Part shown: positions 5,301 through 57,633 of the stretch, in pieces
Numbering within the stretch: position 1 is the first letter of the stretch
Layout: the number at the start of each line of letters is the position of its first letter
NCBI GenBank assembly: GCA_965262425.1
Contig: OZ253536.1
Location: forward strand, 4,688,115-4,752,114
DNA: 64,000 nt
Direction of reading: 5' to 3'
Source of the DNA: Terriglobia bacterium
Lineage (GTDB): Bacteria; Acidobacteriota; Terriglobia; 20CM-2-55-15
Notes under the pieces: model-generated
The model's database searches: none
The model's input: only the letters and a program-made list of their open reading frames with translations
Told to the model about the DNA's origin: nothing
Program-made: the position numbers and the translations under genes

Positions 5301-6021
5301 GCCACGTGTCCCGCTGGAGATATGTCACCGAAGGTTCCGTGCCGAGATCGCCGAGCAATTTGCTTCCCCGTTGCGAACGGGAAAGTCGAGAAACCTCGCT
5401 TTCCCGGTCGTTCAGATTGCCGAATACGAGAGCGTTGGAGGTGCAGGCCTGAACGCAGGCAGTTTTGACCGCTCCGTCCTGGACGGTTTCGCCGTTGGCC
5501 TTGGCCTCGATCTTGGTTTCGTTGATGCGCTGGATGCAGAAGGTGCACTTCTCCATAACCCCCACCTCGCGCACCGAAACATCCGGATTCAACTGGAGGT
5601 TGAGCGGTTTCTCCCATTCGGGGTTGAAGAAGTTGAAGAGGCGCACGTTGTAGGAGCAGGCGTTGGCGCAGTACCGGGTGCCGATGCAACGGTTGTAAAC
5701 CTGCGCGTTCAGGCCCTCCTCGGTATGATGGCTGGCGTATGTCGGACAGACCGGCTCGCAGGGCGCGTTGTCGCACTGCTGGCAGAAGACGGGCCTGAAC
5801 TTGACCTGCACATCCGGGAACTCACCTTCGAAATACCGTTCGACTCTCATCCAGTGCATCGCGCGGCCTCGTGCTGCCTCGTCCGGGCCGACGGTCGGGA
5901 TGTTGTTCTCGGCGTGGCATGCCGTCACACAGGCTTCGCAGCCCGTACACCGGTCCAGATCTACGGTCATCCCCCATCGATAGTTCGTATCTGCCTGTGG
6001 AACCTGTTCTTCCTGCATCAA
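5281..6021 (-). CDS. actB: ACIII subunit ActB2 (4Fe-4S ferredoxin-type iron-sulfur subunit, PsrB/NrfC-like)
   Basis: Multiple CxxCxxCxxxCP clusters (CTGCEACVTAC, CQQCDNAPCEPVCP, CIGTRYCANAC, CTFCIQRINE...). The start codon is 1 nt after the ActB1 stop. Confidence 0.75.
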   Translation of the reverse strand: MMQEEQVPQADTNYRWGMTVDLDRCTGCEACVTACHAENNIPTVGPDEAARGRAMHWMRVERYFEGEFPDVQVKFRPVFCQQCDNAPCEPVCPTYASHHTEEGLNAQVYNRCIGTRYCANACSYNVRLFNFFNPEWEKPLNLQLNPDVSVREVGVMEKCTFCIQRINETKIEAKANGETVQDGAVKTACVQACTSNALVFGNLNDRESEVSRLSRSQRGSKLLGDLGTEPSVTYLQRDTWHESENR

Positions 6022-6022
6022 T

Positions 6023-8257
6023 CTACCTCGAGTGCTCCGAGGGTTCCCTCAAAGCTCCTCCATACAAAATAAGTCCACCCTCTCCTTCGACCTTTTCCAC
6101 ACGGACGCGCGTTGCAGCCCACGCCAGCGCGCCGGTTTCCGGCTCTACAACCGGAGCAAGGATGCGGATCGGATTGGCGCCGCGCCCACTCGCGTACCGG
6201 GTGAAGGTCTCGTGCCCCTGACCGACCGGCATCGCAATGACATCGGGTGCGATCGCGGGTGACACGAAGGCGGGCGCTCGGACCGCGCCGTGTGCGGAGG
6301 TGACCTCGACCAGGTCGCCCTGAACGATTCCGAATCCGCCTGCCGTTTTCGGATTGATTTCAACCCAACTGCACCACATTGCCGATGACAGGACGTCCGG
6401 GAGTTCCTGGAGCCAGGGCAGATGGGCGAGCGATCCATCCAGGAAGGACTGCGAAATGAAGGGTAGAAAATGATACGGATAGTCGCCCGCGTCTCCGTCG
6501 AATTGCGCTTCCTCGAAAGCCGCGGCGCCTCGGTTCGACGTTTGGTCATCGGCCGCCTGGGCCGAGGCCTCGCTCCATATACCACCTTGAGCCTGGGCCA
6601 GCGTCCAGTTGTCGGTTGATTCGTCCGCGGCCGGCAAGGCTTCAAAAGCCAACTGCAACGCTTCCCGGTAAGTCTGCCATGGAAGTGCGGGGTCGAGCGG
6701 CGTGGCCAGGCTTCGTCCCGCTTCAAGCAGGACGTCGGGCATGCCCCGCGTATCGTGAAGCGGGCGCATGGCCGGTGGGGCGACACTTCGCACCGCCATC
6801 GCCGTTCCGGACTCGGGCTCGGAGTCGACCCAGGACTCGAGGAAAGAATGATCGGGTAGAATCAGGTCCGCCAGGTTGCTCGTCTCGTCGATAAACTGAC
6901 CAAAGCTGGCGATGTACGGGATGCTCGACAATGCCTCCATGACACCCCATGCCGGCGGCGCTCCAAAGACCGGGTTGGTGTCGTTCAACAAGAGGACCTC
7001 GATCGGCGATCCGGTGCCGTCACGGATGTCGGAGGCAATTTCTCGGAGTGAACGTCTCGAACTGTTGTCGGAACCTTCCGGGCGGGGCGTGAAGAAGATC
7101 CCGCCCGGTGTCCCGACGCTTCCGCCGAGCGCATTCAGCGCATTCACTGCCAGGGCGTGGAACAGACCGTTGGTCTGTGCCAGCGGCGGCCCGCCGATCA
7201 AGGCGATGGCGGGTCCGTTCTCGGCAAACTCTCGACCCAACCGCCGGACCTTCCGGGCATCGACTCCGGTCAGTCGCTCCACCTCTTCGGGGGTGTAGGC
7301 GGGGAGGCCGTCGGACCAGCCTTCGATCAACAGGCCGGCGCGGCCGGCATCTTCCGCCGAGGCGAATCCGGTATCCATGATGACGTGGGCCAGGCCCAAA
7401 GCCAGAACGCCCTCGGAACCGGGACGCGCCGGAACCCACTCGTCGGCGTTCGCTCCTGTCTGAGACATTCGCGACTCAACCTGGACGAACTTCGCCCGGA
7501 CTCCGGGCCGGCCCTTCCGCATCTCGCCATATGCAACGTTTTGAGAGACCGGAGAGTTCCAGGTTCCGAGAAAGTCCGCGCCGAACCCGATGACATAATT
7601 CGATCGTGCCAGGTCCGGGGTCGGGAGTTGACTGAACCCGTAGCTTGCCAGGTTTGCGCGACGAAGTACGTCCTCACCGAAGACTTCGAACGCTATCGGC
7701 GGTGGAGCGCCGAACCGATCGAGGAACCGATCCACGAGCCTTCCCCGCTGTCCACTGAGGGGACGGGTCAGGAATGCCAGCGCGTTCTGGTTGCCCGCTG
7801 CGGCGAGACCGTCCAACTGAGATACCAGTTCGGCTTGCGCTTCTTCCCACGTGATGGGGGCGAACTGTCCGGACCCACGCTCACCGGACCGTTTGAGCGG
7901 CCCGGTAATGCGATCCGGGTGGTATGTCACCTGAATGGCCGCCTGACCGCGCACGCAGAGTTTTCCCTGGCTGACCGGGTGTTCCGGGTTGCCTTCCAGT
8001 TTCTTGACCAGCCCCTTGGTGACGACGCCGGCCTGGCCGTTTCGGACGACTTCGACATCCCCTTCCATGACGCGGACGGTCAGGCCGCATCCAGCGGAAC
8101 AAAGCGGGCAGATACTGGGTTTCCAGGCCGAGATGCCCGGCACGAGATACTCGTCAGGAAGGAACCGAATCAGCTCGTTTTCCGGGTTTCCGCAACTGGC
8201 AAGTGTGGCGGTCGCGCCGGTGGCCGCGGTGATTTGAACGAATTTACGACGATCCAT
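6023..8257 (-). CDS. actB: ACIII subunit ActB1 (molybdopterin-oxidoreductase-like large subunit with Tat signal)
   Basis: MDRRKFVQITAATGATATLASCG twin-arginine signal with the ATG at 8257 preceded by GGAG. The fold is a MopB-family (molybdopterin oxidoreductase large subunit) fold. In most ACIII this is fused to the FeS domain as one ActB; here it is split. Confidence 0.75.
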   Translation of the reverse strand: MDRRKFVQITAATGATATLASCGNPENELIRFLPDEYLVPGISAWKPSICPLCSAGCGLTVRVMEGDVEVVRNGQAGVVTKGLVKKLEGNPEHPVSQGKLCVRGQAAIQVTYHPDRITGPLKRSGERGSGQFAPITWEEAQAELVSQLDGLAAAGNQNALAFLTRPLSGQRGRLVDRFLDRFGAPPPIAFEVFGEDVLRRANLASYGFSQLPTPDLARSNYVIGFGADFLGTWNSPVSQNVAYGEMRKGRPGVRAKFVQVESRMSQTGANADEWVPARPGSEGVLALGLAHVIMDTGFASAEDAGRAGLLIEGWSDGLPAYTPEEVERLTGVDARKVRRLGREFAENGPAIALIGGPPLAQTNGLFHALAVNALNALGGSVGTPGGIFFTPRPEGSDNSSRRSLREIASDIRDGTGSPIEVLLLNDTNPVFGAPPAWGVMEALSSIPYIASFGQFIDETSNLADLILPDHSFLESWVDSEPESGTAMAVRSVAPPAMRPLHDTRGMPDVLLEAGRSLATPLDPALPWQTYREALQLAFEALPAADESTDNWTLAQAQGGIWSEASAQAADDQTSNRGAAAFEEAQFDGDAGDYPYHFLPFISQSFLDGSLAHLPWLQELPDVLSSAMWCSWVEINPKTAGGFGIVQGDLVEVTSAHGAVRAPAFVSPAIAPDVIAMPVGQGHETFTRYASGRGANPIRILAPVVEPETGALAWAATRVRVEKVEGEGGLILYGGALREPSEHSR

Positions 8258-21202: not shown

Positions 21203-21368
21203 CTAGGAGCCTGCGCGGCAGAAGGGATCGTAGCGAGAAAGTGGAGAATCGAGGTCAGATTTTCTCGATTTTGAGGCGAATAGTGGTTCTATTCAACGAA
21301 AAATCGGGGGAATATGACCGATTACACCGCTTTCGCAGTAGATCTCTTCTGCCGCGCAGGCTCCTAGG
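21203..21368 (+). mobile_element. MITE-like repeat family 1, copy A. About 166 bp with a perfect 22-bp TIR CTAGGAGCCTGCGCGGCAGAAG and a possible GAAGGA target-site duplication.
   Basis: Near-identical copies occur at 31470-31632, 33434-33598 and, inverted, at 50203-50368. The flanks read gaagga|CTAGGAGCC...GGCTCCTAG|gaagga. Confidence 0.7.
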
Positions 21369-24086: not shown

Positions 24087-24903
24087 TCAGAATCTCCTAG
24101 GTCGATGCTTTCCAGAAAGTCGTCCAAACAATGTCGACGCAGAAACCATTCCCTTTGAAGGGTGAGCAGCCTCGTTGAACGACTCCTGGGAAGGCAAGCA
24201 CTTGTACTCCAAGTACCGCCGGCTTCCCTCAAGCATTCTGTCGAGAGGGTCGGCGGGTTTGCGTTTTATTCCCTGCGGGCGAGGTCAAGCGTTCGATAGC
24301 ATATCGGCAGACCACGTCGCCCGCGATCATATGTTAATGGCGGACGATTGACGCCCCCAACAACTGTCGAATCATGTTCAGTTCACAGTCAAGAACGCGG
24401 TGTTGCGTTCGGCTGGGGTTGAAAAGTCTCCCATTTGAAGAAGTAATTATAGATGCCGGCACGCGCGCAACAATCCTTAAACAGGTACACACTTTAAACT
24501 ATTTTTAGCGGCACAACGATTATAAGTTGGCCTAGACTGGGCGTCCTACGAGACTTCCGGTGAGCTGCATTTTCCTCCATTCGTCTTTGCTCAAGATGGT
24601 CTCGCTAGACCGAACATGAGCCTGCCGACAAGTCGTCCGAGCCGCGCGTGCCTGCCGCGCCAGAGCCTCCAAACGGATCCCAAAAGGAGCTCTCTGGATC
24701 GTGGACCATGGACCAGACTTTGAACGTCTATCCGTCGGCCCAGCGGGCGCTCTTCCAGCAATACCACGTTGGCGGGTGCAGCAGCTGCGGTTGTCTGAGT
24801 CGTGCAGCTTAGCAGATTTGACGTTATTTTGCCACTGCTCACGAGGTGAAGCCTATTGTTTGTATGATGTTACCAACTGTGGTGAGTCTTGCACGCTGCG
24901 GGT

Positions 24904-28429: not shown

Positions 28430-28531
28430 AATAGCCTCCTTATAAAAAGGTATCAACTTCGTCTCCAGATTGATCTGAAGTGTATCGATACCCATCAGCG
28501 CCTGGCCTTATCCAACAATTCTACTGAACGT

Positions 28532-31303
28532 TCATGTACTCATCTGTCGCAGGACGTACTGCAGAATACCTCCGTGCCTGTAATACTGAATTTCGACAGG
28601 TGTGTCCAGCCGAGCCACCACCCCGAAACTCTTCTCGGAACCGGACTCATCTCGTGCGCGTACGATGAGTTTCTGTCGGGGTGACAGGCCCCCGGCGATC
28701 CCCTCGATATCAAAGCTCTCGAACCCGGTCAATCCAAGGCTTTCCCGGCCCTCTCCGTCGGCAAATTCCAGGGGGAGAACCCCCATGCCGATGAGGTTGC
28801 TCCGGTGGATTCGTTCAAAACTCTCCGTCAGCACCGCCCGAACGCCCAGCAGGCGGGTTCCCTTGGCAGCCCAGTCTCGCGAGGAACCGGATCCATATTC
28901 CTTTCCGGCGACGACGATGAGCGCGGTTCCTTCTTCCTTGTAGCGCATCGCCGCGTCATAGATGGCCATCTGTTCCTTTTCCGGAAGGTGGACGGTCCAC
29001 CCTCCTTCGGTGCCGGGCGCCATCTGATTGCGGAGTCGGATGTTTCCGAACGTGCCCCGCATCATCACTTCGTGATTGCCTCGCCGCGCTCCGAAAGAAT
29101 TGAAATCTCCCGGCTCGACCCCTTCGCTCAAGAGATACTCGCCGGCAGGGCTGTCCTTCGGAATCACGCCCGCCGGAGAGATGTGGTCGGTTGTGACCGA
29201 GTGTCCCAGCACAGCAAGCGCCCGGCCGTTCCGGATGTCCTCGAGGGCAGGCGCCTCGCGCGGCATGTCGTCAAAAAACGGCGGCCGCTTGACGTATGTG
29301 GAATCGTCATCCCACCCGTAAAGGTCAGTCGTGGCCGACTCCAGCGCATTCCAGCGTTCATCGCCCTGGAGCGATTCTTCGTAGGCTGTCCGGAACATTT
29401 CCGGCTGCAGGGCAGAGGCAATCGTGTCCCGGACTTCTTCGCCGGTCGGCCAGATGTCCGCGAGGAGAACCGGATTTCCGGCCGCGTCGAAACCCAGGGG
29501 CTCAACTGTCAGATCCACATCCATATTGCCGACGATCGCGTAGGCGACCACGAGCGGTGGTGATGCAAGATAATTGGCCCGGACCAGGGGACTGATCCGG
29601 CCCTCGAAATTACGGTTTCCGCTCAGGACGGACGTCGCGATCAGGTCGTGCTCCTCAATACCCGCGGCGATCGGATCAGGAAGGGGGCCGCTGTTGCCGA
29701 TACAGGTGGTGCACCCGTATCCGACGAGGTGAAACCGCAATGCTTCCAGGTCCGTCAGCAATCCGGTCTTCATCAGATAGTCGGTGACGACACGAGACCC
29801 GGGAGCCAGGCTCGTCTTGACCCAGGGGCGAACGGTCAGCCCCCGCTCGACGGCTTTCCGCGCCAACAGTCCTGCGGCGATCATCACCGAAGGATTCGAT
29901 GTGTTGGTGCAGCTGGTTATCGCTGCGATCACAACCGACCCGTGACCGATAGAAAACTCATCCTGGTCCAGCTTGATCGGAACGGATTTGACGAGCGCAG
30001 CCAGTGCGTCCGTTTCGGGAACGCCGCCCGAGGATGCCCGTGGCCCCTCGCCGGAATCGATCCAGTTCTCCACCCGGGCTTCACCCCCACCTCCACTCCC
30101 GTTCAGCATCGAGACCAGGACCCGGCGAAACCCGGACTTGGACTCCCTGAGGAGAATGCGATCCTGTGGCCTTTTGGGGCCTGCGATTGCGGGTTCAACC
30201 GTAGATAGGTCCAGTTCGAGCGAATCTCTGAAGATCGGGTCGGGCGTTTCAGGAGTTCGGAACAGGCCTTGAGCCTTCGAATATGTTTCGACGAGTTCGA
30301 TCGAGGCGGCATCACGGCCGGTCAACGTCAGATAGTTGAGCGTCTCGCTATCGACAGGGAAAAACCCGACGGTGGCGCCGTACTCCGGCGCCATATTCGA
30401 AATGGTCGCCCTGTCCGCCAGGGAAAGATGGTCGAGACCCGGTCCGAAGAATTCGACGAACTTTCCGACAACGCCTTTAGCTCGAAGCATCTGGACAACA
30501 AGAAGGACCGCGTCCGTCGCGGTCGACCCTTCCGGCAATTGACCGCTAAGCCTGAAGCCAACCACGTCCGGGATGAGCATGGACAGGGGCTGGCCGAGCA
30601 TGGCGCCCTCGGCTTCGATGCCGCCCACGCCCCAGCCGACGACACCCATGCCGTTGATCATTGTGGTGTGCGAATCGGTGCCGACGAGCGTGTCCGGGTA
30701 TGCAGTGACGTTTCCACCGTCCCGGTTCGAGAAGACGACATGCGCCAGATGTTCCAGGTTGACCTGGTGCACGATCCCGGTGTCGGGAGGCACGACACGG
30801 AAATTGTCGAACGCTTTCTGACCCCACTTGAGGAACAGGTAGCGTTCGCGATTCCGCTCCAGTTCGCGCTCCGCGTTGTATGCAAAGGCCGAAGCCGAGC
30901 CATACTGATCGACCTGAACGGAATGGTCCACCACAAGATCGACAGGTTGGAGGGGGTTGATCCGTTTGGGATCTCCTCCCATGTCTCGTATCACTTCGCG
31001 CATGGTCGCCAGATCGACTATGGCGGGGACGCCCGTAAAATCCTGCATCAAGACACGCGCCGGACGGAATGCGATCTCCCATTCGGATCGTGGACCGGAG
31101 ACCGATCCGGCGAGTGCGCGAATGTCTTCTGCCGAAACCGACTCCCCGTCTTCGTGACGCAGAAGGTTTTCCAACATGACCTTTAGAGAAAACGGCAGGC
31201 CGGACACACCATCAACGCCCGATTTCTCCAGCGCCTCCAGCGAAAAGTAGCGAAGGGGCTCGGTGCCCAGTTGAAGTGTGGACTCTGTTCCAAAGCTGTT
31301 CAT
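28532..31303 (-). CDS. acnA: Aconitate hydratase A
   Basis: 924 aa from the ATG at 31303 (MNSFGTESTLQ...) with aconitase family domains. The ORF-track extension to 31441 is rejected. Confidence 0.9.
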   Translation of the reverse strand: MNSFGTESTLQLGTEPLRYFSLEALEKSGVDGVSGLPFSLKVMLENLLRHEDGESVSAEDIRALAGSVSGPRSEWEIAFRPARVLMQDFTGVPAIVDLATMREVIRDMGGDPKRINPLQPVDLVVDHSVQVDQYGSASAFAYNAERELERNRERYLFLKWGQKAFDNFRVVPPDTGIVHQVNLEHLAHVVFSNRDGGNVTAYPDTLVGTDSHTTMINGMGVVGWGVGGIEAEGAMLGQPLSMLIPDVVGFRLSGQLPEGSTATDAVLLVVQMLRAKGVVGKFVEFFGPGLDHLSLADRATISNMAPEYGATVGFFPVDSETLNYLTLTGRDAASIELVETYSKAQGLFRTPETPDPIFRDSLELDLSTVEPAIAGPKRPQDRILLRESKSGFRRVLVSMLNGSGGGGEARVENWIDSGEGPRASSGGVPETDALAALVKSVPIKLDQDEFSIGHGSVVIAAITSCTNTSNPSVMIAAGLLARKAVERGLTVRPWVKTSLAPGSRVVTDYLMKTGLLTDLEALRFHLVGYGCTTCIGNSGPLPDPIAAGIEEHDLIATSVLSGNRNFEGRISPLVRANYLASPPLVVAYAIVGNMDVDLTVEPLGFDAAGNPVLLADIWPTGEEVRDTIASALQPEMFRTAYEESLQGDERWNALESATTDLYGWDDDSTYVKRPPFFDDMPREAPALEDIRNGRALAVLGHSVTTDHISPAGVIPKDSPAGEYLLSEGVEPGDFNSFGARRGNHEVMMRGTFGNIRLRNQMAPGTEGGWTVHLPEKEQMAIYDAAMRYKEEGTALIVVAGKEYGSGSSRDWAAKGTRLLGVRAVLTESFERIHRSNLIGMGVLPLEFADGEGRESLGLTGFESFDIEGIAGGLSPRQKLIVRARDESGSEKSFGVVARLDTPVEIQYYRHGGILQYVLRQMST

Positions 31304-31469
31304 GACTGATGTTCTTTCTCCCGCTGATTGGCTGATGGTATGTGGGCCGAACAGGTCCGCGAAGACGAGCCTGACGATCCGCACTCGGACCGAAGTTACA
31401 TTATATGCGCATACCGCCTCCCTTGAATTGGTCCAGACCATCTGCTAGCGTAAGTCCTTTGGTTTGACG

Positions 31470-31632
31470 CTAGGAGCCTGCGCGGCAGAAGGGATCGTAG
31501 CGAGAAAGTGGAGAATCGAGGCCAGATTTTCTCGTTTTGAGGCGAATAGTGGTTCTATTCAACGAAAAATCGGGGAAATATGGACCGATTATACCGCTTT
31601 CGCAGTAGATCTCTTCTGCCGCGCAGGCTCCT
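31470..31632 (+). mobile_element. MITE-like repeat family 1, copy B
   Basis: Same TIR and internal sequence as copy A, with a few substitutions. It lies upstream of the gamma-CA-like gene and downstream of acnA. Confidence 0.7.
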
Positions 31633-31668
31633 CGTTTCCCGTCGTCAAACCGGGATCTCCGGAGGCTC

Positions 31669-32190
31669 ATGCTTCACGAATACAAGGGCGTGCGGCCGAC
31701 ACTGGGTGAGGGTGTCTTTGTCGCGCCAGGCGCTCACGTGATTGGCGACGTAGAGATTGGCGACCACTCCAGTATCTGGTTCAACACCGTGGTTCGCGGC
31801 GACGTCGACTACATTCGAATCGGACATCGGACGAACATACAGGATGGTTCGATTTGTCACGGCATGTTGGATGAATGCCCCGTGATCCTGGGTGACTTTG
31901 TGACCGTCGGTCACGGTGCCATCCTGCACGGTTGCACTGTGGAATCCCACTGCTTGATCGGAATGGGCGCGACGATCATGAACAATGTGCGTGTCGGAGC
32001 GGGATCGATCGTCGCTGCGCGGGCGCTGTTGACGGAAAACACCGAGATCCCGCCCAGGAGCCTGGTTTAGGGAGCTCCCGGTAGAGTGAAGAGGGCGTTG
32101 ACGGAAGAAGAAATCGCCGGCATCGACGAATATGCCTGGCGGTATTGCCGGTACAAGGACGCGTACCTGGCCGGTCCTGATAAGCGATGA
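31669..32190 (+). CDS. Gamma-class carbonic anhydrase family protein (PaaY/YrdA-like hexapeptide-repeat protein) interrupted by one in-frame TAG at 32068-32070
   Basis: Left-handed beta-helix hexapeptide repeats up to ...IPPRSLV*. The same frame continues as GAPGRVKRALTEEEIAGIDEYAWRY..., matching the conserved family C-terminus. It ends with a TGA overlapping the hisS ATG as ATGA. Confidence 0.7.
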
Positions 32191-33437
32191 TCAAATTGGT
32201 TCGTGGTACCTACGACATCCTCCCGCCCGACATCCATATCTGGCACGCCATCGAGGCGGAAATGAGGGCTGTGTTCGAATCGTACTCGTTTAACGAGATC
32301 CGTACCCCAATCTTCGAGTCGACCGAACTGTTCGTCCGGGGAGTCGGGGAAGAAACCGATATCGTTTCGAAAGAGATGTACACGTTCAAGGACAAGGACG
32401 AGAAGACCTCTTTGACTCTCAGGCCCGAGGGAACAGCGCCAGTTGTCCGCTCCTACATTGAACACCATCTTTCTGATGAATCCAGGATGATCAAGCTCTA
32501 CTACATCGGTGCGATGTTCCGTCGGGAACGACCCCAGAGGGGCCGTTTCCGGCAGTTTTATCAGGCCGGAGTGGAGGTTCTTTCTCCCAACGACAACCCC
32601 GCCATCGAGGCGGAGGTTGTCGAAATGCTCATGCTGCTGTTCGAGCGGCTGGAAGTTTCGTCGCTGGACCTGGCTGTGAATTCGATCGGGTGCCGGGAAT
32701 GTCGGCCCTCATACATCGAGAAGCTGCGGAGCGAAATCCGCGGGCGCCGTGAAGGTTTGTGTGAGGACTGTCGCAACCGGGGTGAGAAGAATCCACTGCG
32801 TGTCTTCGACTGCAAAGTGAAATCCTGCCAGGCGCTGATAGGGGAGCTGCCGACGATTACCGACAACCTCTGTCAGGAGTGCAGGGAGCACTTCTCCGGA
32901 TTTCGCGCGTACCTGGATGAAAGAGAGATCCCGTACCGGGTGGAGCCCCGGCTCGTCCGAGGCCTGGACTATTACATGCGAACGACGTTCGAGATACTTT
33001 CTTCCAGCCTGGGGGCTCAGGACACTCTGGTGGGAGGCGGCCGCTACGATGGCCTCAGCGAAGACCTGGGCGGTCCCCCGACTAACGGGTTTGGTTTCGC
33101 GATGGGGCTTGAGCGGTTGATCCTGTCGATTCCGGAGCCCGAAAAGCTGGCGCCGGGACCCGGCCCGGCCTATTTCCTGGCGACAATGGGCGAGGACGCA
33201 TTCCGGTACGCCACGCTTCTGGCACGCAAATTGCGAAAGGCAGGCTGTTCGGTCTATCTGGATTTCGCCGGGCGCAGCCTCAAGAGCCAGATGAGATTGG
33301 CAGGGAAGCTCGGTGCAGCTCAAGTTGTCATGATAGGTGAAAACGAGATCAAGTCCGGGACCCTCATCGTTCGGGACATGAACACCCGGGAGCAAAGGGA
33401 GTTGAGCGAGTCTGAACTGATGGAGACGGGCTGCTAG
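32187..33437 (+). CDS. hisS: Histidine--tRNA ligase
   Basis: 416 aa with class II aaRS motifs and an HisRS-specific N-terminus MIKLVRGTYDILP. Confidence 0.9.
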   Translation: MIKLVRGTYDILPPDIHIWHAIEAEMRAVFESYSFNEIRTPIFESTELFVRGVGEETDIVSKEMYTFKDKDEKTSLTLRPEGTAPVVRSYIEHHLSDESRMIKLYYIGAMFRRERPQRGRFRQFYQAGVEVLSPNDNPAIEAEVVEMLMLLFERLEVSSLDLAVNSIGCRECRPSYIEKLRSEIRGRREGLCEDCRNRGEKNPLRVFDCKVKSCQALIGELPTITDNLCQECREHFSGFRAYLDEREIPYRVEPRLVRGLDYYMRTTFEILSSSLGAQDTLVGGGRYDGLSEDLGGPPTNGFGFAMGLERLILSIPEPEKLAPGPGPAYFLATMGEDAFRYATLLARKLRKAGCSVYLDFAGRSLKSQMRLAGKLGAAQVVMIGENEIKSGTLIVRDMNTREQRELSESELMETGC

Positions 33438-33598
33438 GAGTCTGCGCGGGAGAAGGGATCGTGGCGAGAAAGTGGAGAATCGAGGCCAGATTTTCTCGAT
33501 TTTGAGGCGAATAGTGGTTCTATTCAACGAAAAATCGGGGAAACATGGACCGATTATGCCGCTTTCGCAGTAGATTCCTTCTGCCGCGCAGGCTCCTA
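33434..33598 (+). mobile_element. MITE-like repeat family 1, copy C (the TIR begins inside the hisS stop codon)
   Basis: ctaggagtctgcgcgggagaag...cttctgccgcgcaggctcct. The TAG of hisS is the CTAG of the TIR. Confidence 0.7.
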
Positions 33599-33612
33599 CG
33601 GAAGTACTGGAA

Positions 33613-35367
33613 ATGAAGAGAACCCATAGTTGTGGAGAGTTGACCGCGGCCGATGCGGGAAAAGAAGTTGTGCTCATGGGGTGGGTGAACCGGCGGCGGG
33701 ACCACGGCCAGCTTGTTTTCATAGATCTGCGTGACAGAGAGGGCATTACCCAGGTCGTCCTGCACCCGGAACGCGACGCCGACGCCCACGGGCAGGCCAA
33801 GCGATTGCGTTCCGAGTTCGTGATCGCCGTGCGGGGAAAGGTTTCCCTGAGGGATGGGGAACTGGCCAACCCCAGCTTGAAGACCGGTGAGATCGAAGTG
33901 GACGTCGAGCGGGTCGATGTTTTCAGTGAGGCCCGGACCACGCCCTTTCCGATCGAGGACGACATTTCAACCTCCGAAGATCTGCGACTGAAATACCGTT
34001 ACCTCGATCTGCGCCGCCCGCAGATGCAGGCCAATTTCCATCTTCGGCATCAGGTCATGATGGCGATTCGCGCCTATATGGATCGGGAGGGATTCTGGGA
34101 GGTCGAGACCCCCTTCCTGACGAAGTCGACTCCGGAGGGTGCGAGAGACTATCTGGTTCCCAGCCGGCTCTCCCACGGTAACTTCTATGCCTTGCCGCAA
34201 TCGCCACAGATCTTTAAGCAGATCCTGATGGTTTCCGGCTTTGAAAAGTATTTCCAGATCGTCCGATGCTTTCGCGACGAAGACCTCCGTGCCGACAGAC
34301 AGCCCGAGTTTACTCAAATCGACGTCGAGATTTCCTTTCCGGACGTGGATGATTTCTTTGCTGTGATGGAAGGCTTGATGGTCGAAGTGTTCAAAGTGAA
34401 AGGCCTCGAGATCGAGTGTCCATTTCCCCGAATGAGCTATGACGACGCGATGGACCGTTACGGCTCAGACAAACCCGACACCCGTTTCGGAGTCGAGTTG
34501 CAGGACTTTACCGAAGTATTTCGCGAAGCGGAACCGTCCTTGTTCCGGGATATCGTTGAGGGGGGCGGTACCGTTCGGGGTCTGCTAGCGCCGGTGTCCT
34601 ACTCTCGCCGGATACTGGATGAAATCGACACTTTCGTAAAGCACCTGGGCGGTGCGGGCGTGGCGTGGTTGAAAGTGACCGATGAGGGGACCAGTGCGGT
34701 TCCACCAATCAAAAAAGCGGGTGCCGCGGCCATCGAGGCCCTCTTGACCAAGGCTCGGGCGCGTCCTGGAGAGACGGTTTTCATGGTTGCGGGGAACCGG
34801 GGCGATGTCCTTCCCACGATGGGCGCACTGAGGTTGGAACTGGCCCGCCGCGAGGGCTGGATTCCTTCGGGCAAATGGAATTTTTTGTGGGTGGTAGACT
34901 TTCCGCTCTTCGAATTCGATTCCACCGAGAATCGCTGGGCGTCCACGCACCATCCATTCACTTCCCCGGTCGCCGAAGATCTTTCCATCCTGGAGAGTGA
35001 CACCGGCAAAGTCCGCGCTCAGGCTTACGACATGGTTCTCAACGGGGTGGAATGTGGCGGCGGTTCGATCAGGATTCACCAGAGTGAAGTTCAGGCGCAA
35101 ATCTTCAAGCTGCTGGGGCTTGACGAAGAGGAGGCGGCCGAGAAATTTGGTTTCTTTCTCGAGGCTCTGGAATACGGAACCCCGCCCCACGGCGGGATCG
35201 CGCTCGGCCTCGATCGAATCATCATGCTGCTGGCCGGAGGCCAATCGCTCCGCGACGTGATTGCCTTCCCCAAGACGGCCCGGGCGGTCGATCTGATGAG
35301 TGGCTCGCCGTCGAGGGTAGGCGACCAGCAACTCAAGGAACTGGGAATACGAACCCGGAAGAGTTGA
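33613..35367 (+). CDS. aspS: Aspartate--tRNA ligase
   Basis: 584 aa with an OB-fold N-terminus, class II motifs, and a GGGSIRIH / LGLDR C-terminal region typical of bacterial AspRS. Confidence 0.95.
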
Positions 35368-35533: not shown

Positions 35534-37348
35534 ATGTCCAAGATACAGGTATTGCCTGACGTAGTTGCCAACCAGATCGCTGCGGGTGAGGTGGTCGAGC
35601 GGCCGGCGTCGATCGTCAAGGAACTGATCGAGAACTCCATCGATGCCGGTGCGGGCAAGATTTTCGTCGAAGTTCGTGGTGGCGGCAGATCCCTCATTCG
35701 CGTGATCGACGACGGAAATGGCATGAGCCGGGAAGATGCGGCGCTCTGTTTCCAGCGACACGCAACCAGCAAACTTCAGGACTCGAAAGATCTGCTTTCG
35801 ATCCGGACATTAGGTTTTCGAGGCGAGGCCTTGCCCTCGATAGCGTCTGTTGCCAGGGTTCGCCTGGAGACCCAGCTTCGGGATACCGACGTCGGTACGT
35901 CCGTAGAGGTGGCGGCGGGTGAGGTCCTTTCCATTAAGGAGGATGCTTTTCCCGAGGGCACCCAGATCACTATCGAGGACGTTTTCTATAACGTCCCCGC
36001 CCGGAGTAAATTCCTGAAGTCGGAATCTTACGAACTCAGCCGGGTCACGTCCTTATGCACCCACTTCGCGCTCGCGTTTCCCGGAATTCACTTTGTGTTG
36101 AAGAGCGGAAACTTCGAGATCCTGTCGGCCCCGACCGCGACCGGCTATCGCGACCGAATATTTCAGGTGTTCGGACAGGACCTCCTGGACGAATTAGTCG
36201 AGTACCAGAAGGACTGCGGCCCCGGGCTCAAGATTCACCTTTTCACGTCTCGACCCCACGTCCAGAAGTACAACCGGAACTCGATGTTCTTTTTCGTCAA
36301 CCGCCGTGTCGTGAGGGACAAGATCATATCGCACGCCTTTAGCGAGGCTTATCGCAGCATCCTTCCTTCCGGCACTTTTCCCGTTGCGATGTTGTTCGTC
36401 GAGGCGCGTCCAAAGGACGTGGATGTGAACGTCCATCCCGCCAAGACGGAAGTTCGGTTCCGTCAGGGATCACTGATTCACGATGCGATTCGAAACACGG
36501 TGGCCGACGCCCTGACCTCGGACAAGACCATCGTTCCAATGGAAGAGGGCACTGCCGGGGCGTCACTGTATCGCGCTCCGGAGTTCAAGCCCCGGGTGCC
36601 GACTTCCTGGAGTGGAGGCCCGCTCGCGAAAGAGCCGATTGCCGATTCTCCCGCGGCGCTGACTTATTCCGAAGGGAGGGTTCTGGCTTTCGACTTCCAG
36701 CAGGGACAGACGGTGACGGGGGGGGATGCGGCCCCTGGGACCGGCTCCCCGCGCGATTTCGAATTGGTCCGGAGCGAGATTCGGCCTCTGGGCCAACTCC
36801 AGGACAGTTTCATCATCGCCGCAGACTCTTCAGGTCTGGTTGTCATCGACCAGCATGTGGCCCACGAACGCGTTCTGTTCGAGGCGTACATTCGTGAACG
36901 TGCCGACGAGCAGGTCCAGGTGCAACAGCTCTTGATGCCGATCCTGATTGAGTTAAGCCCCGCTCAGGAGGTCCTGATTGAAGCCCTGAAGCCGGAGCTG
37001 GACCGAAACGGTTTCGAGGTGGAACCGTTTGGGGGGCGGACTCTGGCAGTGAAAACAGCCCCTGCCATCCTGAAGGCCGGGGCTGTTGAAAAGCTCGTCC
37101 GCGAACTGCTGGACGGTCTGGAACGCGAACATCAGGGCTTGAGCATCGACCATTTTCGCAAGAAAATTGCGGCTACGGTGGCCTGTCATGCAGCAATCAA
37201 GATCAACAATCCGCTCGATGGTGTTAAGATGCGATGGCTGGTTACGGAGCTGATGAAAACAGATGTTCCGACGGTTTGTCCCCATGGCCGTCCGATCATC
37301 GTGAGATACGATCTTCGGGAGATACATAAGGCGTTCAAGCGTTCTTGA
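35534..37348 (+). CDS. mutL: DNA mismatch repair protein MutL
   Basis: GHKL ATPase N-terminus (IAAGEVVERPASIVKELIENSIDAGA), MutL transducer, and a C-terminal dimerisation domain. ATG at 35534. Confidence 0.9.
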   Translation: MSKIQVLPDVVANQIAAGEVVERPASIVKELIENSIDAGAGKIFVEVRGGGRSLIRVIDDGNGMSREDAALCFQRHATSKLQDSKDLLSIRTLGFRGEALPSIASVARVRLETQLRDTDVGTSVEVAAGEVLSIKEDAFPEGTQITIEDVFYNVPARSKFLKSESYELSRVTSLCTHFALAFPGIHFVLKSGNFEILSAPTATGYRDRIFQVFGQDLLDELVEYQKDCGPGLKIHLFTSRPHVQKYNRNSMFFFVNRRVVRDKIISHAFSEAYRSILPSGTFPVAMLFVEARPKDVDVNVHPAKTEVRFRQGSLIHDAIRNTVADALTSDKTIVPMEEGTAGASLYRAPEFKPRVPTSWSGGPLAKEPIADSPAALTYSEGRVLAFDFQQGQTVTGGDAAPGTGSPRDFELVRSEIRPLGQLQDSFIIAADSSGLVVIDQHVAHERVLFEAYIRERADEQVQVQQLLMPILIELSPAQEVLIEALKPELDRNGFEVEPFGGRTLAVKTAPAILKAGAVEKLVRELLDGLEREHQGLSIDHFRKKIAATVACHAAIKINNPLDGVKMRWLVTELMKTDVPTVCPHGRPIIVRYDLREIHKAFKRS

Positions 37349-38993: not shown

Positions 38994-39204
38994 GGGCCCG
39001 CTCAAGAATAACGTCACATTTTGGCATCCCACCGTCGCGCCATCTTCGCGGACCGTCGCGCCATCTTCGCGGGACCGTCGCGCCATCTTCGGCCGCTCCT
39101 CAATCGCAGATGTCGGGCTATTTCTCCGGTCTGCTCAATCGGTCGCGACCGAATCTGACCGAAATCTGGGCGCCAATTCTGTGAAGTTGTTCTTGAGCGG
39201 ACCC
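38994..39204. mobile_element. MITE-like repeat family 2, copy 1. About 211 bp with an imperfect TIR GGGCCCGCTCAAGAATAACGTCACATTTTGGC / GCCAATTCTGTGAAGTTGTTCTTGAGCGGACCC, and it contains a 3x tandem 21-nt repeat.
   Basis: A second copy is at 57465-57633, with identical internal blocks (caatcgcagatg.cgggctatt.ctccggtctgctcaatcggtcgc.accgaatctgaccgaaatctgggcgccaattctgtgaagtt). Its gtcgcgccatcttcgcgg(g)acc unit is repeated 3x. Copy 2 carries only one related, degenerate unit, cccatcttcacgccaccttcggccgctcc. Confidence 0.65.
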
Positions 39205-39283
39205 TGGATGGAGCGGAAATGGCGTGCCTCGAGACTCCGGGCCCCGATTTGACACTGCCGACCCGTGGTCCTACCCTTGAACG

Positions 39284-44230: not shown

Positions 44231-46639
44231 TCAGTGCATGATGGAACCGGGCCGGACCGTCGATTCACTCGCTACCCGTGGATCGAACCCTTCAACCCCT
44301 TCGAGTGGGGTGGGCTGCTCCGTCAGGGCGACTTTGAGGACGTCATCCAATTCCTTGACGAGGTGGATGGTGAATTCTTCCAGGATATTGGCAGGAATGT
44401 CGGCCAGATCTTTCTGGTTGTCCTCGGGAATGATAATCGTCCGAATTCCGACGCGATGTGCCGCCAGCAGCTTTTCCTTCAATCCCCCGATCGGCAGTAC
44501 TTTTCCGCGCAGCGTTATCTCGCCGGTCATGGCGACGTTGCTGTGCACCGGAATCTGAGTCAGCGCGCTGACGATCGACGTCGCCATCGTAATGCCCGCC
44601 GAAGGCCCATCCTTGGGAATGGCCCCTTCCGGGACATGAATATGGATATCGAGCCTCTGATAGAAATCGCTCGGAATTCCAAAATCATGCGCCCGCGCCC
44701 GTACATAACTCATGGCGGCCTGGGCCGATTCCTGCATCACGTCGCCGAGTTTACCCGTCAGCGTGAGCTTGCCGCTTCCCTCCATCAAGGTCGCTTCGGT
44801 GGCAAGGATCTCACCGCCGACCTCGGTCCAGGCAAGACCGGTAACAAAGCCGATTTCGTTCGTTTCTTCGTGACGACTCGAACGGTACTTCGGAATGCCG
44901 AGGTAGTCCGACAGATTGTCGTTGGTGATTTCCGCCCTGTATTTCTTGCCTTCCCGGACCACCGCACGCGACACCTTGCGGCAGACTCCCGAAATCTCGC
45001 GTTCGAGGTTGCGGACCCCGGCCTCGCGCGTGTAGCCCCGGACGATGGTTGGGATCGTGGCGTTGTCGAATTCCAGCTGCTTGGTGGCGATGCCTGTCGT
45101 CTCGAGCTGTTTTGGGATCAGGAAGCGCTTCGCGATTTCCACCTTCTCCTCCTCGGTATAACCGGGGAGCCGGAGGATTTCCATGCGGTCCTGCAGCGGC
45201 TGCGGGATCGTATGCAACACGTTCGCGGTTGCAATAAACATGACCTGGGAGAGATCGTAGTCCACGTCCAGGTAGTGGTCGTTGAATGTGGAGTTCTGCT
45301 CCGGATCCAGCACCTCGAGCAGTGCCGCGGCGGGATCACCCCGGAAGTCCGTGCTCATCTTGTCGACTTCATCGAGAAGGAACACCGGATTCATCGTGCC
45401 GGCCTTCTTGATCATCTGGATGATCTGCCCTGGTAGCGCACCGATATAAGTGCGGCGATGTCCCCGGATCTCGGCCTCGTCGCGGACCCCGCCCAGGGCC
45501 AGCCGTACGAATTTGCGGCCCGTTGCTCGGGCGATAGACCGGCCAAGCGAGGTCTTGCCGACACCCGGAGGGCCCGCAAAGCACAGGATCGAACCCTTGG
45601 GCTTTTTGACGAGCTGGCGGACTGCGAGGAACTCCAATATCCGTTCCTTGATCTTATCCAGGCCGTAGTGATCCTCGTTCAGGATACGTTCGGCGGCATC
45701 GATATCCCGGATCTCCCGGCTTCGTTTTTTCCACGGCACCGCAACAAGCCAGTCGATATAGTTGCGCGAGACGGTCGATTCAGCCGACATCGCCGGCATC
45801 ATCTCGATGCGACGCAATTCCTGGGTTGCCTTTTCGTAGGCCTCCTTCGTCATTCCGGCATCTTCGACCTTGGCTCGCAGCTCCTCCATATCGGACTTTT
45901 CGTCTTTCTTTCCGAGCTCCCGCTGGATCGCCTTGATCTTTTCGTTGAGGTAATATTCCTTCTGCGCCCGTTCCATCTGCCGTTTGACACGACTCTGGAT
46001 GGATCGATCCACCTGCAGCTTTTCGATCTCGATGTCGAGCAGGTCCGCAAGTCGCTTGCAGCGCTCCACGGGATTGAAGATCTCTATAAGTTCCTGCTTT
46101 TCTTCGATGGATAGTGTCAGGTGCGAGCAAATCGTGTCTGCCAGCCGACCGATGTCATCCATCCGTATCGCCGAAAGAACTTGCTCGTAATTCACGTTCT
46201 GGCTCAGCTTGACGTATTGCTCGAAGAGTTGGCTGACGCGCGCGATCAGGTTGTCGTATCCGGAAAAGGACTGGTTCTTGAACGGAGACAGGCGGAGGTT
46301 GGCGGCCATGTGGCCGTTTTCTTCCGAAAGTTGCAGAATGCGAGCCCGTTCGATGCCCTCGACCAGAACCTTCGTGTTTCCGTCCGGGAGCTTCAGCGCC
46401 TGGACCAGGTTCGAAATGGTTCCGATCTGATAGATCTCGTTCGGCTTCGGGTTGTCGACCGAAGCGTCGTACTGCGTCGCCAGGAAGATTCGTTTGTCGC
46501 CTTCCATCGCCATTTCCAGTGCACGCACAGAGGACTTCCGTCCTATCACGAAGGGGACCAGCATGTAGGGGAAGATGACTACGTCCCGGATAGGGACCAT
46601 CGGCAACTTGACCTGCTCGTATTTATCCTTTGCGCTCAT
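44231..46639 (-). CDS. lon: ATP-dependent Lon protease
   Basis: 802 aa with a Lon N-domain, an AAA+ domain (GPPGVGKTS), and a protease domain with the catalytic Ser context PKDGPSAG. Confidence 0.95.
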
Positions 46640-46723
46640 TAGTTCACTTCCGGGTTCAGGATTTGTCGGGGATCCTGACTGGTTGGGACAACCGATCCAT
46701 TCGCCTGTCCAGCCTTTTTCTGT

Positions 46724-47986
46724 CTATCCAGCCTTTTCGTACGGCAACCGTACTTCCTTCTTTTCGACCATTCGTTTCGTGATCGTTAGCGCTTCCTGGC
46801 TTTTTTGTCCCGGGAGGGAGTACATAACGTCAAGCATCAGTTCTTCCATAATGATACGCAGGCCGCGGGCACCCACCTTTCGCTTTATGGACTGGTCTGC
46901 GATAGCCGCAATGGCTTCCTTGGAGAACTTCAAATCGACGTTTTCGTATTCGAACAAACGCTGGTACTGCTTGACGAGCGCATTCTTTGGCTGGGTCAGG
47001 ATCTTCACCAGGGCGTCCTGATCCAGGTCGTGCAGAGTTGCCACGACCGGTACCCGGCCGACGAATTCGGGGATCATCCCATACTTAATGAGATCTTCGG
47101 GTTCTACCATGTCGATCAGCGCCGACCGATTCTCTGTGGTCTTTGCGCGCAGCTCGCCCTGAAATCCCATCGTGCTACCCTTGGCGAGCCGTTTTTCGAC
47201 CATGTTCTCCAGGCCCACGAAAGCTCCACCGCAGATAAACAGGATGTTGGTCGTATCGACCTGTGTGAATTCCTGATGGGGGTGTTTCCGACCACCCTGA
47301 GGCGGGACGTTGGCGACCGTGCCCTCAAGCATCTTTAACAGTGCTTGCTGGACCCCTTCGCCCGACACATCGCGCGTGATCGAAGGGTTTTCGTCTTTTC
47401 GACCTATCTTGTCGATCTCGTCGATATAAATAATCCCTGTTTGAGCCCTTTCCACATCCCCACCGGCACTCTGTACCAGTCTCAGGATGATGTTTTCGAC
47501 GTCTTCGCCGACGTAACCCGCCTCGGTCAAGGTGGTTGCATCTACGATCGCAAACGGGACGCTCAGGAGCCGCGCAAGTGTTTGAGCCAGCAAGGTCTTG
47601 CCGGTCCCGGTGGGTCCGATCAAGAGGATGTTGGATTTCTGCAGCTCGACTTCGGACTTTTTTCGGGCCAGTTCGATCCGCTTGTAGTGGTTGTAGACAG
47701 CCACGGCCAGCTTCTTCTTCGAGGTGGTCTGACCAATTACGTATTGATCCAGGAACTCTTTGATTTCAGGTGGTTTCGGAAGGTGGACGTTGCTCGGAGC
47801 CGGCTCGACGCTCTGGTCTTCATCAATAATGTCCTGACAGACAGCGACGCATTCATCGCAGATGAACACCGTGGGGCCGGCGATCAACTTCCGAACATCG
47901 TTCTGGCTCTTGTTACAAAAGGAACACCGAAGCACATCACCGCTGTTCTTCTTCAAAGCGCTTTCCTCCACACCGTTTGCGCACAC
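46724..47986 (-). CDS. clpX: ATP-dependent Clp protease ATP-binding subunit ClpX
   Basis: N-terminal zinc ribbon CSFCNKSQ...CDEC and an AAA+ domain with [11 protein letters not shown]. Confidence 0.95.
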
Positions 47987-48039
47987 CTGGCCGCAAATCG
48001 GAATTCATTCGACCTTCTACTGCATCAACGTATGGGGCG

Positions 48040-48651
48040 TCATTGGCGTTTTGAAATGACTTCGTCAATCAGGCCATATTCCTTACATTGTTCTGAGCTC
48101 ATGATGTAGTCGCGTTCCACGTCCTTTTCGATCTTCGCCAGGGGCTGGTCCGTATGTTTGACCAGGATGTCGTTCAGGATGCTGCGCATTCGGAGGATCT
48201 CTTTTGCGTGGATCTCGATGTCGGTTGCCTGCCCCTGAAGCCCGCCCAGCCACGGTTGGTGGATCAGGATCCGGGAGTGGGGGAGCGCGAAACGCTTCTT
48301 AGGGGATCCGGCCGCAAGCAGAACCGCTGCCATGCTGGCTGCTTGTCCGACGCAGATTGTCGTCACATCGGGACGGATAAACTGGATTGTGTCGTAAATC
48401 GCCAGTCCAGCCGTTATCGATCCCCCGGGAGAATTGATGTAGAGCGAGATATCGCGATCCGGATCTTCAGCCTCGAGGAAGAGCAGTTGGGCCGTGACGA
48501 CGTTGGAGACATTGTCGTCGATCGGCGTGCCGATGAAAATGATACTGTCGCGCAGCAGTCGCGAATAGATGTCGTAGGCTCGCTCGCCGCGGTTGGTCTG
48601 TTCCACGACCATGGGGATCAAAGTATTTCTTTCTTCAATGTTGTTGCGCAT
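48040..48651 (-). CDS. clpP: ATP-dependent Clp protease proteolytic subunit ClpP
   Basis: ...[18 protein letters not shown]..., with the catalytic Ser context GQAASMAA and the His/Asp contexts. Confidence 0.95.
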
Positions 48652-48846
48652 TCACCGGTTCCACTGCATCGGGCAACGTCAAACAAAGCCCTGGTTATAC
48701 TTATCGGCAAATTGTGTCACGAACTACCCACAAAAATAGCATACAACATCGGCGGGATTATGATGCGGTCAAAGACCGGCCGCCGAGTCCAGAGTCCGAG
48801 GTTGGGCGAGAGAGGTATGTTGTAGCGGTCTCTGACGGTCGAACTG

Positions 48847-50187
48847 TCAGGGCTCCAGGATTTGCGGCGCGTCTCGAGCGTCGTCTTGTTCCTGGCTCAA
48901 GCTTCCCGCCGGGACCACTTTGGCCCTCTCTTGAAGCATGTTGAGCACTTTTTTGTTTTGAATCTGTCCTTTGATCCGATCCAGGCCGTCGTTTCGGCCG
49001 AGGACCTCACGGACATTTTCCTTGGGGCGATTCATTTCCGCGGCGATGACATCGATTTCCTTCTCGATGTCCTCATCCTCAACCCGAATATCTTCAACCT
49101 TGGCCAGGTGTTCGAGAATCAATGAACCCCGAACATCCCGGACAGCCTCCGCATATTGATCAGCCCGGATCTTTCCCCAGTCCACATCCAATCGTTGGGG
49201 GTTGACGCCCTGCTCGGTCAGGTTCCGCATGAGCCGCTGCAACCGAATCTGGACCTGGTGTTCGATGAGTGAATCGGGGACCTCGAACTCGTTGTTGTCC
49301 TGCAGCCAGCCGAGGAGTGCGTTGTGGGTTTCTTCCGAGGCGTTCCGGCGCTTATGGGCTTCCAGGTTCTCGCGAATGCTCTGCTTGAAGCCGTCCACCG
49401 TCTCATAGTCTCCCAGACTCTGGGCGAACTCGTCGTCGAGCTTCGGGCTGACCTTTTCCTTGATGGATTCCACCTTCACCGTATAGACGACGTGCTTCCC
49501 GGCCAGGTTCTTGTCCGGATGATCTTCCTTGTAGGTCACAGGGAAAGCCTTCTCCTCGCCGGCACGTGTGCCGGTAAGGTTGTCTGTGAACTCCTTGAGC
49601 GTCGTCGCTCCACCGATTTCACACAGCACCTTTTCCGCCGACAGGTCCGTCTCTTCATCTCCCTCGACCGAACCATTGAAGGTGATTTCCACGAAATCCC
49701 CTTCACCAACCTCACGATCTTCGTCCACAGGAGTCATCTCGGAGTGTTCTTCGATGATTCGCGCGAGCGCGGCGTCAATGTCTGAATCCACAACTTCGGT
49801 CGCGATCTCCTCGACTGGGATCTCGGAATGGTTCGTAATGTCCAGGCGTGGGTAGACTTCGAATACCGCTTTGAAGCGCAGCGCTTGCCCTGTCGAATAC
49901 TCCACGCCTTCAAAGCCCGGCGTATGCACGACGTCCAGGTTCTGATCCTTCGCGGCCTCTGAGAAGTACTTTGGCAGGAGTTTCTGTAACACCTCGGACC
50001 GGATCTCGTCGCGGTATCGATTCTTTACGACCGCAATCGGTGCCTTGCCCGGCCGGAATCCCGGCACCTTGGCCTGGCGCTTGAACTCCCGCGCAATGGA
50101 TGTCACTTCGCCGTCCACGACGTCCTGTGCGATCTCGATATCGAGGCGCTTCTTTACCGCGGTTATGTCAGTCAGTTCTGCTTTCAT
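48847..50187 (-). CDS. tig: Trigger factor
   Basis: 446 aa with an N-terminal ribosome-binding domain (FRPGKAPI), an FKBP-type PPIase middle domain, and a C-terminal arm. Confidence 0.9.
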   Translation of the reverse strand: MKAELTDITAVKKRLDIEIAQDVVDGEVTSIAREFKRQAKVPGFRPGKAPIAVVKNRYRDEIRSEVLQKLLPKYFSEAAKDQNLDVVHTPGFEGVEYSTGQALRFKAVFEVYPRLDITNHSEIPVEEIATEVVDSDIDAALARIIEEHSEMTPVDEDREVGEGDFVEITFNGSVEGDEETDLSAEKVLCEIGGATTLKEFTDNLTGTRAGEEKAFPVTYKEDHPDKNLAGKHVVYTVKVESIKEKVSPKLDDEFAQSLGDYETVDGFKQSIRENLEAHKRRNASEETHNALLGWLQDNNEFEVPDSLIEHQVQIRLQRLMRNLTEQGVNPQRLDVDWGKIRADQYAEAVRDVRGSLILEHLAKVEDIRVEDEDIEKEIDVIAAEMNRPKENVREVLGRNDGLDRIKGQIQNKKVLNMLQERAKVVPAGSLSQEQDDARDAPQILEP

Positions 50188-50202
50188 TGGCTAAAAACCG
50201 TG

Positions 50203-50368
50203 CTAGGAGCCTGCGCGGCAGAAGAGATCTACTGCGAAAGCGGTATAATCGGTCCAGATTTCCCCGATTTTTCGTTAAATAGAACCACTATTCGCCTCAA
50301 AATCGAGAAAATCTGTCCTCGATTCTCCACTTTCTCGCTACGATCCCTTCTGCCGCGCAGGCTCCTAG
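50203..50368 (-). mobile_element. MITE-like repeat family 1, copy D (inverted relative to copies A-C)
   Basis: Both termini are the perfect TIR (ctaggagcctgcgcggcagaag ... cttctgccgcgcaggctcctag). Its internal sequence is the reverse complement of copies A-C. Confidence 0.7.
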
Positions 50369-50455
50369 CCGATCCTCATTTTCTTAAAGTTGGCTGTTCC
50401 AGGAGAAAATTTTGACTGAGGCATGGTGTTCATGACCGCCCAGCCGGCTTCGTAA

Positions 50456-50537
50456 TGCGAAAGGAGGGACTCGAACCCTCATGGGTTGCCCCACTGGATC
50501 CTAAGTCCAGCGCGTCTGCCAATTCCGCCACTTTCGC
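50456..50537 (-). tRNA. tRNA-Leu (anticodon UAG), type II with a long variable arm, no encoded CCA
   Basis: Minus-strand read GCGAAAGTGGCGGAATTGGCAGACGCG CTGGA-CTTAGGA-TCCAG TGGGGCAACCCATGA GGGTTCGAGTCCC...CTTTCGCA. The acceptor stem is 7 bp, the anticodon loop is C-U-UAG-G-A, and it has the T-loop GTTCGAGTC. Confidence 0.8.
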
Positions 50538-57464: not shown

Positions 57465-57633
57465 GGGCCCACTCAAGAATAACTTCACATTTTGGCATCC
57501 CATCTTCACGCCACCTTCGGCCGCTCCTCAATCGCAGATGCCGGGCTATTCCTCCGGTCTGCTCAATCGGTCGCAACCGAATCTGACCGAAATCTGGGCG
57601 CCAATTCTGTGAAGTTATTCTTGAGTGGACCCT
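57465..57633. mobile_element. MITE-like repeat family 2, copy 2 (about 169 bp)
   Basis: gggcccactcaagaataacttcacattttggc ... gccaattctgtgaagttattcttgagtggaccc. Its internal block is shared with the copy at 38994-39204. Confidence 0.65.

Follow-up and report, generated by a model that had tools for sequence, protein, structure and literature searches.

A gene of the gamma-carbonic-anhydrase (gamma-CA) family that precedes hisS in the window (the whole 64-kb stretch of DNA that was analysed) is interrupted by an in-frame amber codon, which very probably reflects a real and very recent TTG to TAG nonsense mutation in one Terriglobia sublineage, leaving a nascent pseudogene. The intact alleles of close relatives show the ancestral gene to have encoded a 173-aa gamma-CA-family protein, with a stop codon overlapping the hisS start; in one sublineage of a population of uncultured Terriglobia (Acidobacteriota), a T-to-A transversion at 32069 would have turned Leu134 (TTG) into amber (TAG). 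The 39 codons downstream of the stop look conserved because there has been too little time for decay, the haplotypes showing about 5 differences in 20 kb.

The feature amounts to an ordinary nonsense polymorphism at the strain level. Like other such polymorphisms and nascent pseudogenes, it consists of a single-base stop in a gene that is otherwise intact, with the intact allele present in near-identical strains, no secondary decay visible and linkage to a few neutral SNPs. There is nothing unusual about it, its sole particular being that the stop breaks an ATGA overlap with an essential aminoacyl-tRNA synthetase gene.

Reading frame of the interrupted gene

The positions given in the initial annotation for the open reading frame, the TAG, the 39-codon continuation and its TGA were all confirmed on the sequence (Table 1), as was the overlap of that TGA with the hisS ATG, which is seen as ATGA at 32187-32190. 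The 133-codon frame reads ...NTEIPPRSLV at its C-terminus before the TAG, and the same frame then runs on as GAPGRVKRALTEEEIAGIDEYAWRYCRYKDAYLAGPDKR up to the TGA. By itself, an open stretch of 39 codons is not significant -- a rough estimate puts the chance of it at about 0.2 at 58% G+C -- and the significance of the continuation lies in its homology, not in its length. Within the compared stretch, which extends to 32200, the orphaned 3' part is identical in sequence to that of the intact allele.

Table 1. Features of the gamma-CA gene, its junction with hisS and the linked markers (window coordinates)
Feature	Position	Strand	Remarks
Shine-Dalgarno-like GGAGG	31661..31665	+	3 nt upstream of the gamma-CA ATG (31669); read from the sequence
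Truncated gamma-carbonic-anhydrase-family ORF	31669..32070	+	left-handed beta-helix, hexapeptide repeats; 133 codons + TAG
Derived amber codon TAG	32068..32070	+	SNP at 32069: A here, T (TTG, Leu134) in sibling assemblies and sister genome
Orphaned 3' part of gamma-CA gene	32071..32190	+	39 codons + TGA (32188-32190); antiparallel strand and C-terminal alpha-helix including conserved Tyr159
In-frame GTG (Val140)	32086..32088	+	11 nt after GGGAG (32070-32074); possible re-initiation codon, speculative, from sequence only
hisS, histidyl-tRNA synthetase, 416 aa	32187..33437	+	tRNA-synt_His and HGTP_anticodon reach residue 413 of 416; TAG at 33435-33437
Linked haplotype marker in aconitase	30704	-	synonymous, Thr200 ACT vs ACC; in all three TAG-bearing assemblies
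Linked haplotype marker in aspS	34140	+	synonymous, Gly176 GGT vs GGA; in all three TAG-bearing assemblies

TTG and TAG alleles in assemblies of the same organism

Sibling loci were found by exact look-ups in public assemblies, first with the HisRS protein as query and afterwards with the products of 133 and 173 aa (Table 2). TTG, encoding Leu, and a 173-aa call were found in six assemblies of the same uncultured Terriglobia bacterium, and TAG in three distinct ones, namely the window, L002 and L006; in the cluster listing, the 133-aa form stands on three contigs and the exact 173-aa form on five. When 601 nt were aligned for the window and L001-L004, position 32069 was the sole variable column, with T in L001, L003 and L004 and A in the window and L002. 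Five of the six TTG assemblies cover these 601 nt and are identical to the window at 600 of them, again with 32069 as the sole difference. The allele evidence takes the form of assembled contigs and their coverage tags (19x and 109x for the TAG contigs).

A recent nonsense mutation from TTG, TGG or CAG had been the first explanation offered in the initial annotation, which also took the extension to be still translated, or to have been so until very recently. The siblings bear out both points, since they read TTG at the site and encode the intact protein of 173 aa.

Table 2. Alleles of the gamma-CA gene in sibling assemblies
Codon	Locus	Assembly	Product
TTG	L001/L007	ERZ25074053, 5.84-Mb circular contig, 22x	173 aa
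TTG	L003/L010	ERZ28763718, 6.35 Mb	173 aa
TTG	L004/L011	ERZ21829562	173 aa
TTG	L008	ERZ25069191	173 aa
TTG	L009	ERZ26167216	173 aa
TTG	L012	Logan assembly of ERR14231558	173 aa
TAG	L002/L005	ERZ25068966, 842 kb, 19x	133 aa
TAG	L006	ERZ25071132, 6.22-Mb circular contig, 109x	133 aa

Direction of the change

The closest species representative, OZ252023.1 (L013; a 6.41-Mb chromosome, with 97% protein and 96.4% nucleotide identity), has TTG at the site and shares the ATGA junction. A further seventeen relatives, ranging from Terriglobia to Proteobacteria and archaea, have proteins of 168-180 aa with L, M, A, Y, T or V at this position, so that a sense codon and full length are found in 18 of 18 genomic relatives. 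Alignment to homologues had been proposed at the outset as a check on the extension; all 18 proteins fall within 168-180 aa, and none stops after the equivalent of SLV. As the sister genome and all 17 further relatives have a sense codon here, TAG is the derived state, and the T-to-A transversion, as read from the aligned sequences, lies on the short branch leading to the clade formed by the window, L002 and L006.

Linked variation around the gene

The surroundings of the gene were compared in a 20-kb alignment of the window, L006 and four TTG contigs, and in a 7-kb alignment that additionally contained L002 and the sister genome. Over the 20 kb, the window and L006 have five SNPs in common against all four TTG contigs, at 24538, 30704, 32069, 34140 and 40225. 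The states 30704A, 32069A and 34140T are common to the window, L002 and L006; beyond these, the window and L006 have in common 24538T, 40225T and a 17-bp deletion in the hisS-aspS spacer. The indel concerned (~33586-33600) lies at a short direct repeat (GCAGGCTCCT) at the 3' edge of the intergenic repeat copy described below and is variable between strains: the TTG contigs have the spacer in full, L002 lacks 6 nt of it, and the window and L006 lack 17 nt. Relative to L006, the window also carries seven private SNPs, which are mostly synonymous or outside called genes. (Private non-synonymous SNPs, absent from every other assembly compared, are at 29226, giving aconitase Gly693 vs Ala, and at 36687, giving mutL Ala385 vs Asp; exact protein look-ups of the window variants of mutL (604 aa) and aconitase (923 and 969 aa) found nothing on record.)

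Differences in private SNPs and in the spacer indel among the three TAG contigs show them to be separate assemblies of one haplotype. The sequence contexts of the haplotype SNPs show no common motif; together with the synonymous character of the linked SNPs, this indicates that the pattern is one of true, slight divergence under purifying selection and not of error.

It is very unlikely, then, that the A at 32069 is an artefact of sequencing or assembly, that is, a consensus error where T would be the true base in all strains. The difference is admittedly a single base in long-read metagenome assemblies (the contig names suggest assemblies of metaMDBG style), one of the TAG contigs is at just 19x, and the SNP ends a TTT run 3 nt from a GAGCTC palindrome (32072-32077) that is a possible methylation site. 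Against this, the same A is present in three non-identical assemblies, one of them closed at 109x, and is completely linked to synonymous SNPs in neighbouring essential genes, as well as to the 17-bp spacer indel in the window and L006, whereas six further assemblies in which the local sequence context is the same have T. Errors made at random would neither recur in three assemblies nor follow a haplotype, and the sequencing error that the initial annotation had allowed for finds no support at 32069 in the sequences compared, with TAG standing in three distinct assemblies on a haplotype marked by linked synonymous SNPs. Should the reads be nanopore reads, a recurrent lineage- or context-specific miscall beside the GAGCTC palindrome would be unlikely; a methylation-linked systematic miscall was considered and likewise judged unlikely, the five haplotype SNPs having no sequence motif in common. 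Moreover, methylation-linked miscalls do not usually take the form of T-to-A.

The junction with hisS

In the intact allele, hisS probably benefits from termination-reinitiation at the ATGA. No obvious Shine-Dalgarno sequence precedes its start (…CCGGTCCTGATAAGCGATG), and a scan of 31300-33700 found no sigma-70-like promoter for hisS inside the gamma-CA gene, though the simple consensus used is not decisive for Acidobacteria. The amber codon would uncouple termination from the hisS start, with translation ending 117 nt earlier. Such uncoupling is evidently tolerated, given that the lineage yielded a closed genome at 109x coverage.

The gamma-CA-hisS synteny is conserved in related Terriglobia. 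The junction is ATGA in L013, L017 and L018, shows a 10-nt stop-to-start offset (a 7-nt spacer) in L014, and extends over 200-320 nt in L015, L016 and L019; as it varies in this way among relatives, the overlap is not required for hisS expression in the group.

There is a slim chance that the TAG is tolerated by way of a partial rescue, either through low-level UAG read-through or a suppressor of this lineage, or through re-initiation at the GTG at 32086, which would keep hisS coupled. If that were so, selection would still be acting on the "dead" 3' segment for its role in coupling.

TAG as a stop codon

Read-through or suppression of the amber codon had also been raised in the initial annotation. 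Amber recoding, whether by pyrrolysine, by suppressor tRNAs or by a reassigned TAG, would likewise show an in-frame TAG with a conserved reading frame continuing beyond it, and partial read-through, by near-cognate decoding or by a suppressor tRNA encoded elsewhere, would yield some full-length protein and keep hisS coupled. The intact post-TAG frame and ATGA junction, and the abundance of the lineage despite the mutation, are consistent with this, but it is highly improbable as the explanation. A mutation this young (5 differences in 20 kb) fully accounts for the intact frame, and the sibling strains simply encode Leu.

Furthermore, TAG is a common and genuine stop in the window. A greedy ORF call, with 59 calls, gave 27 TGA, 20 TAG and 12 TAA stops, so that TAG terminates hisS and 18 other ORF calls besides the gamma-CA frame. 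The TAG of hisS, a gene of the same operon, sits 3 residues past the last Pfam domain (the anticodon-binding domain, HGTP_anticodon), and its read-through, as by a strong suppressor, would lengthen HisRS by 63 residues. The only tRNA detected in the 64-kb window is tRNA-Leu(UAG), the Rfam scan giving no other match; it decodes CUN codons and is no amber suppressor. A search for other in-frame TAG codons, for tRNA-Pyl and for suppressors had been suggested: within the 64-kb window no suppressor tRNA, CUA-anticodon tRNA, Pyl tRNA or pyl genes were found, and in the 20-kb neighbourhood of the gene in L006 the gene calls agreed with those of at least one TTG contig (L008 or L009) at every other gene, giving no sign of in-frame TAG codons at conserved sense positions in further genes. 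(A list of ORF pairs split by a single stop was also tried as a test for in-frame TAG codons and was rejected as too noisy, most of the pairs being antisense to real genes.) TAG is taken as a normal stop in this organism, and nothing in the 64 kb suggests reassignment or programmed read-through.

Family assignment and predicted consequence of the truncation

The gamma-CA ORF contains four stretches matching Pfam Hexapep (PF00132, E=5.7e-22). When the PDB was aligned with the 173-aa protein, using a placeholder Leu at the stop position, solved gamma-CAs aligned gap-free across the stop and out to residues 162-169 (9qev, E=8e-51; 4mfg; 3tio, YrdA; 1v3w). The closest solved structure is 9qev, gamma-CaCA, whose alignment covers residues 1-162. 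This protein has seven beta-helix turns, an antiparallel strand at residues 139-143 and a helix from Glu146 to Tyr166; its zinc ligands, His64, His82 and His87, lie at the subunit interface, and the highly conserved Tyr159 comes from the helix to about 3.9 Å from the metal (PMC12648627). Both YrdA and gamma-CaCA are among the members of the subgroup that have been reported inactive (PMC12648627). The alignment being gap-free, the equivalents in the window protein are H64, H82, H87 and Y159, and the first three, as putative metal ligands aligned to those of 9qev, are retained in the truncated ORF. With a mean pLDDT of 52.8, a single-sequence AlphaFold2 model of the 173-aa protein was not good enough to be used, and the structural argument is based on the gap-free alignment to solved structures.

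The score against the NCBIfam gamma-CA model (NF050158) rises from 146.9 to 171.5 bits when the extension is included, which, with the gap-free PDB alignments, agrees with the earlier identification of the extension as the C-terminal helix of the family; even the intact form stays under the equivalog cut-off of this model (171.5 vs 250 bits). The label of PaaY/YrdA type that had been given to the protein holds in the general sense of the gamma-CA family but does not extend to PaaY or CaiE. These hexapeptide proteins belong to the same superfamily and have a similar length, and the motif ...PPRSLVMGSPAKVVRELT... occurs family-wide, but the window protein scores far under both equivalog cut-offs (117.4 bits vs 319.6 for TIGR02287 PaaY; 98.2 vs 305 for CaiE), and its genomic context is aconitase / hisS-aspS-mutL and not paa or cai genes. 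By its sequence, it is classed as a general gamma-CA-family relative (CamH/YrdA-like) and not as a PaaY or CaiE equivalog.

The intact allele thus resembles 9qev in its hexapeptide left-handed beta-helix and in having His64, His82, His87 and Tyr159 at the same positions of a 173-aa protein, whereas the window gene is cut at codon 134, with strand, helix and Tyr159 left untranslated. In the TAG lineage, translation would end after residue 133. The predicted 133-aa product would keep the beta-helix and the three His metal ligands and would be without the closing antiparallel strand, the C-terminal helix (~146-166) and the metal-facing Tyr159; with these lost, it would most likely be unstable or inactive, to judge from the homologous structures, hence the designation of the gene as a nascent pseudogene. 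No compensating gamma-CA paralogue was found in the window by tblastn with the gamma-CA protein.

It is scarcely credible that selection maintains the 133-aa protein as a functional short isoform, or that the mutation was favoured as a loss of function: the allele does occur in three assemblies, one of them from a sample in which the lineage is dominant (109x), and the three His ligands are kept, but none of the 18 genomic relatives ends at the position of codon 134, all solved gamma-CA-family structures with a checkable alignment run on into the C-terminal segment, that segment provides both the fold-completing helix and the highly conserved Tyr159, and hitch-hiking predicts sharing among very close strains equally well.

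With a very recent nonsense mutation as the preferred reading, the gene should be flagged in annotation as a strain-specific pseudogene or disrupted gene and not as evidence of recoding; otherwise the change matters little. The case shows that a conserved frame beyond a stop can merely mean that the mutation is very young. The natural pair of TTG and TAG alleles could be used to probe the dispensability of the gamma-CA-like protein in Terriglobia and the need of hisS for the ATGA overlap.

Repeats and other loci in the window

An intergenic repeat of ~165 nt is present in three copies, at 21203-21365, 31470-31632 and 33434-33597. The gamma-CA gene is immediately preceded by one copy, and the hisS-aspS spacer contains another, which overlaps the hisS stop codon. 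When folded, the hisS-aspS copy gives a near-perfect long hairpin (-94 kcal/mol, z = -10) with the inverted ends CTGCGCGGGAGAAGG...CCTTCTGCCGCGCAG; the Rfam scan of the window assigned no family to the repeat. L013 is without the hisS-aspS copy, and in view of this absence the repeat behaves like a mobile palindromic element of the MITE/REP-like kind. A second repeat family has two 128-nt copies, at 39078-39205 and 57506-57633, with 95% identity and 18 kb apart.

In L010 (ERZ28763718), a DDE_Tnp_1 transposase gene (378 aa; 5609-6745) lies between the CCP_MauG (cytochrome-c peroxidase) gene and aconitase, the equivalent point in the window being ~28450-28520; this insertion is IS activity within the same population. 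The CCP_MauG call is shorter in L007 and L010 (357 vs 379 aa).

On the minus strand of the window, 44231-50537 holds tRNA-Leu(UAG) and then ORFs of 446, 203, 420 and 802 aa, whose sizes and order make them a candidate for the classic tig-clpP-clpX-lon cluster. The last two (420 and 802 aa) share a reading frame, with a TAG and 85 nt between them, and appear to be two separate genes.
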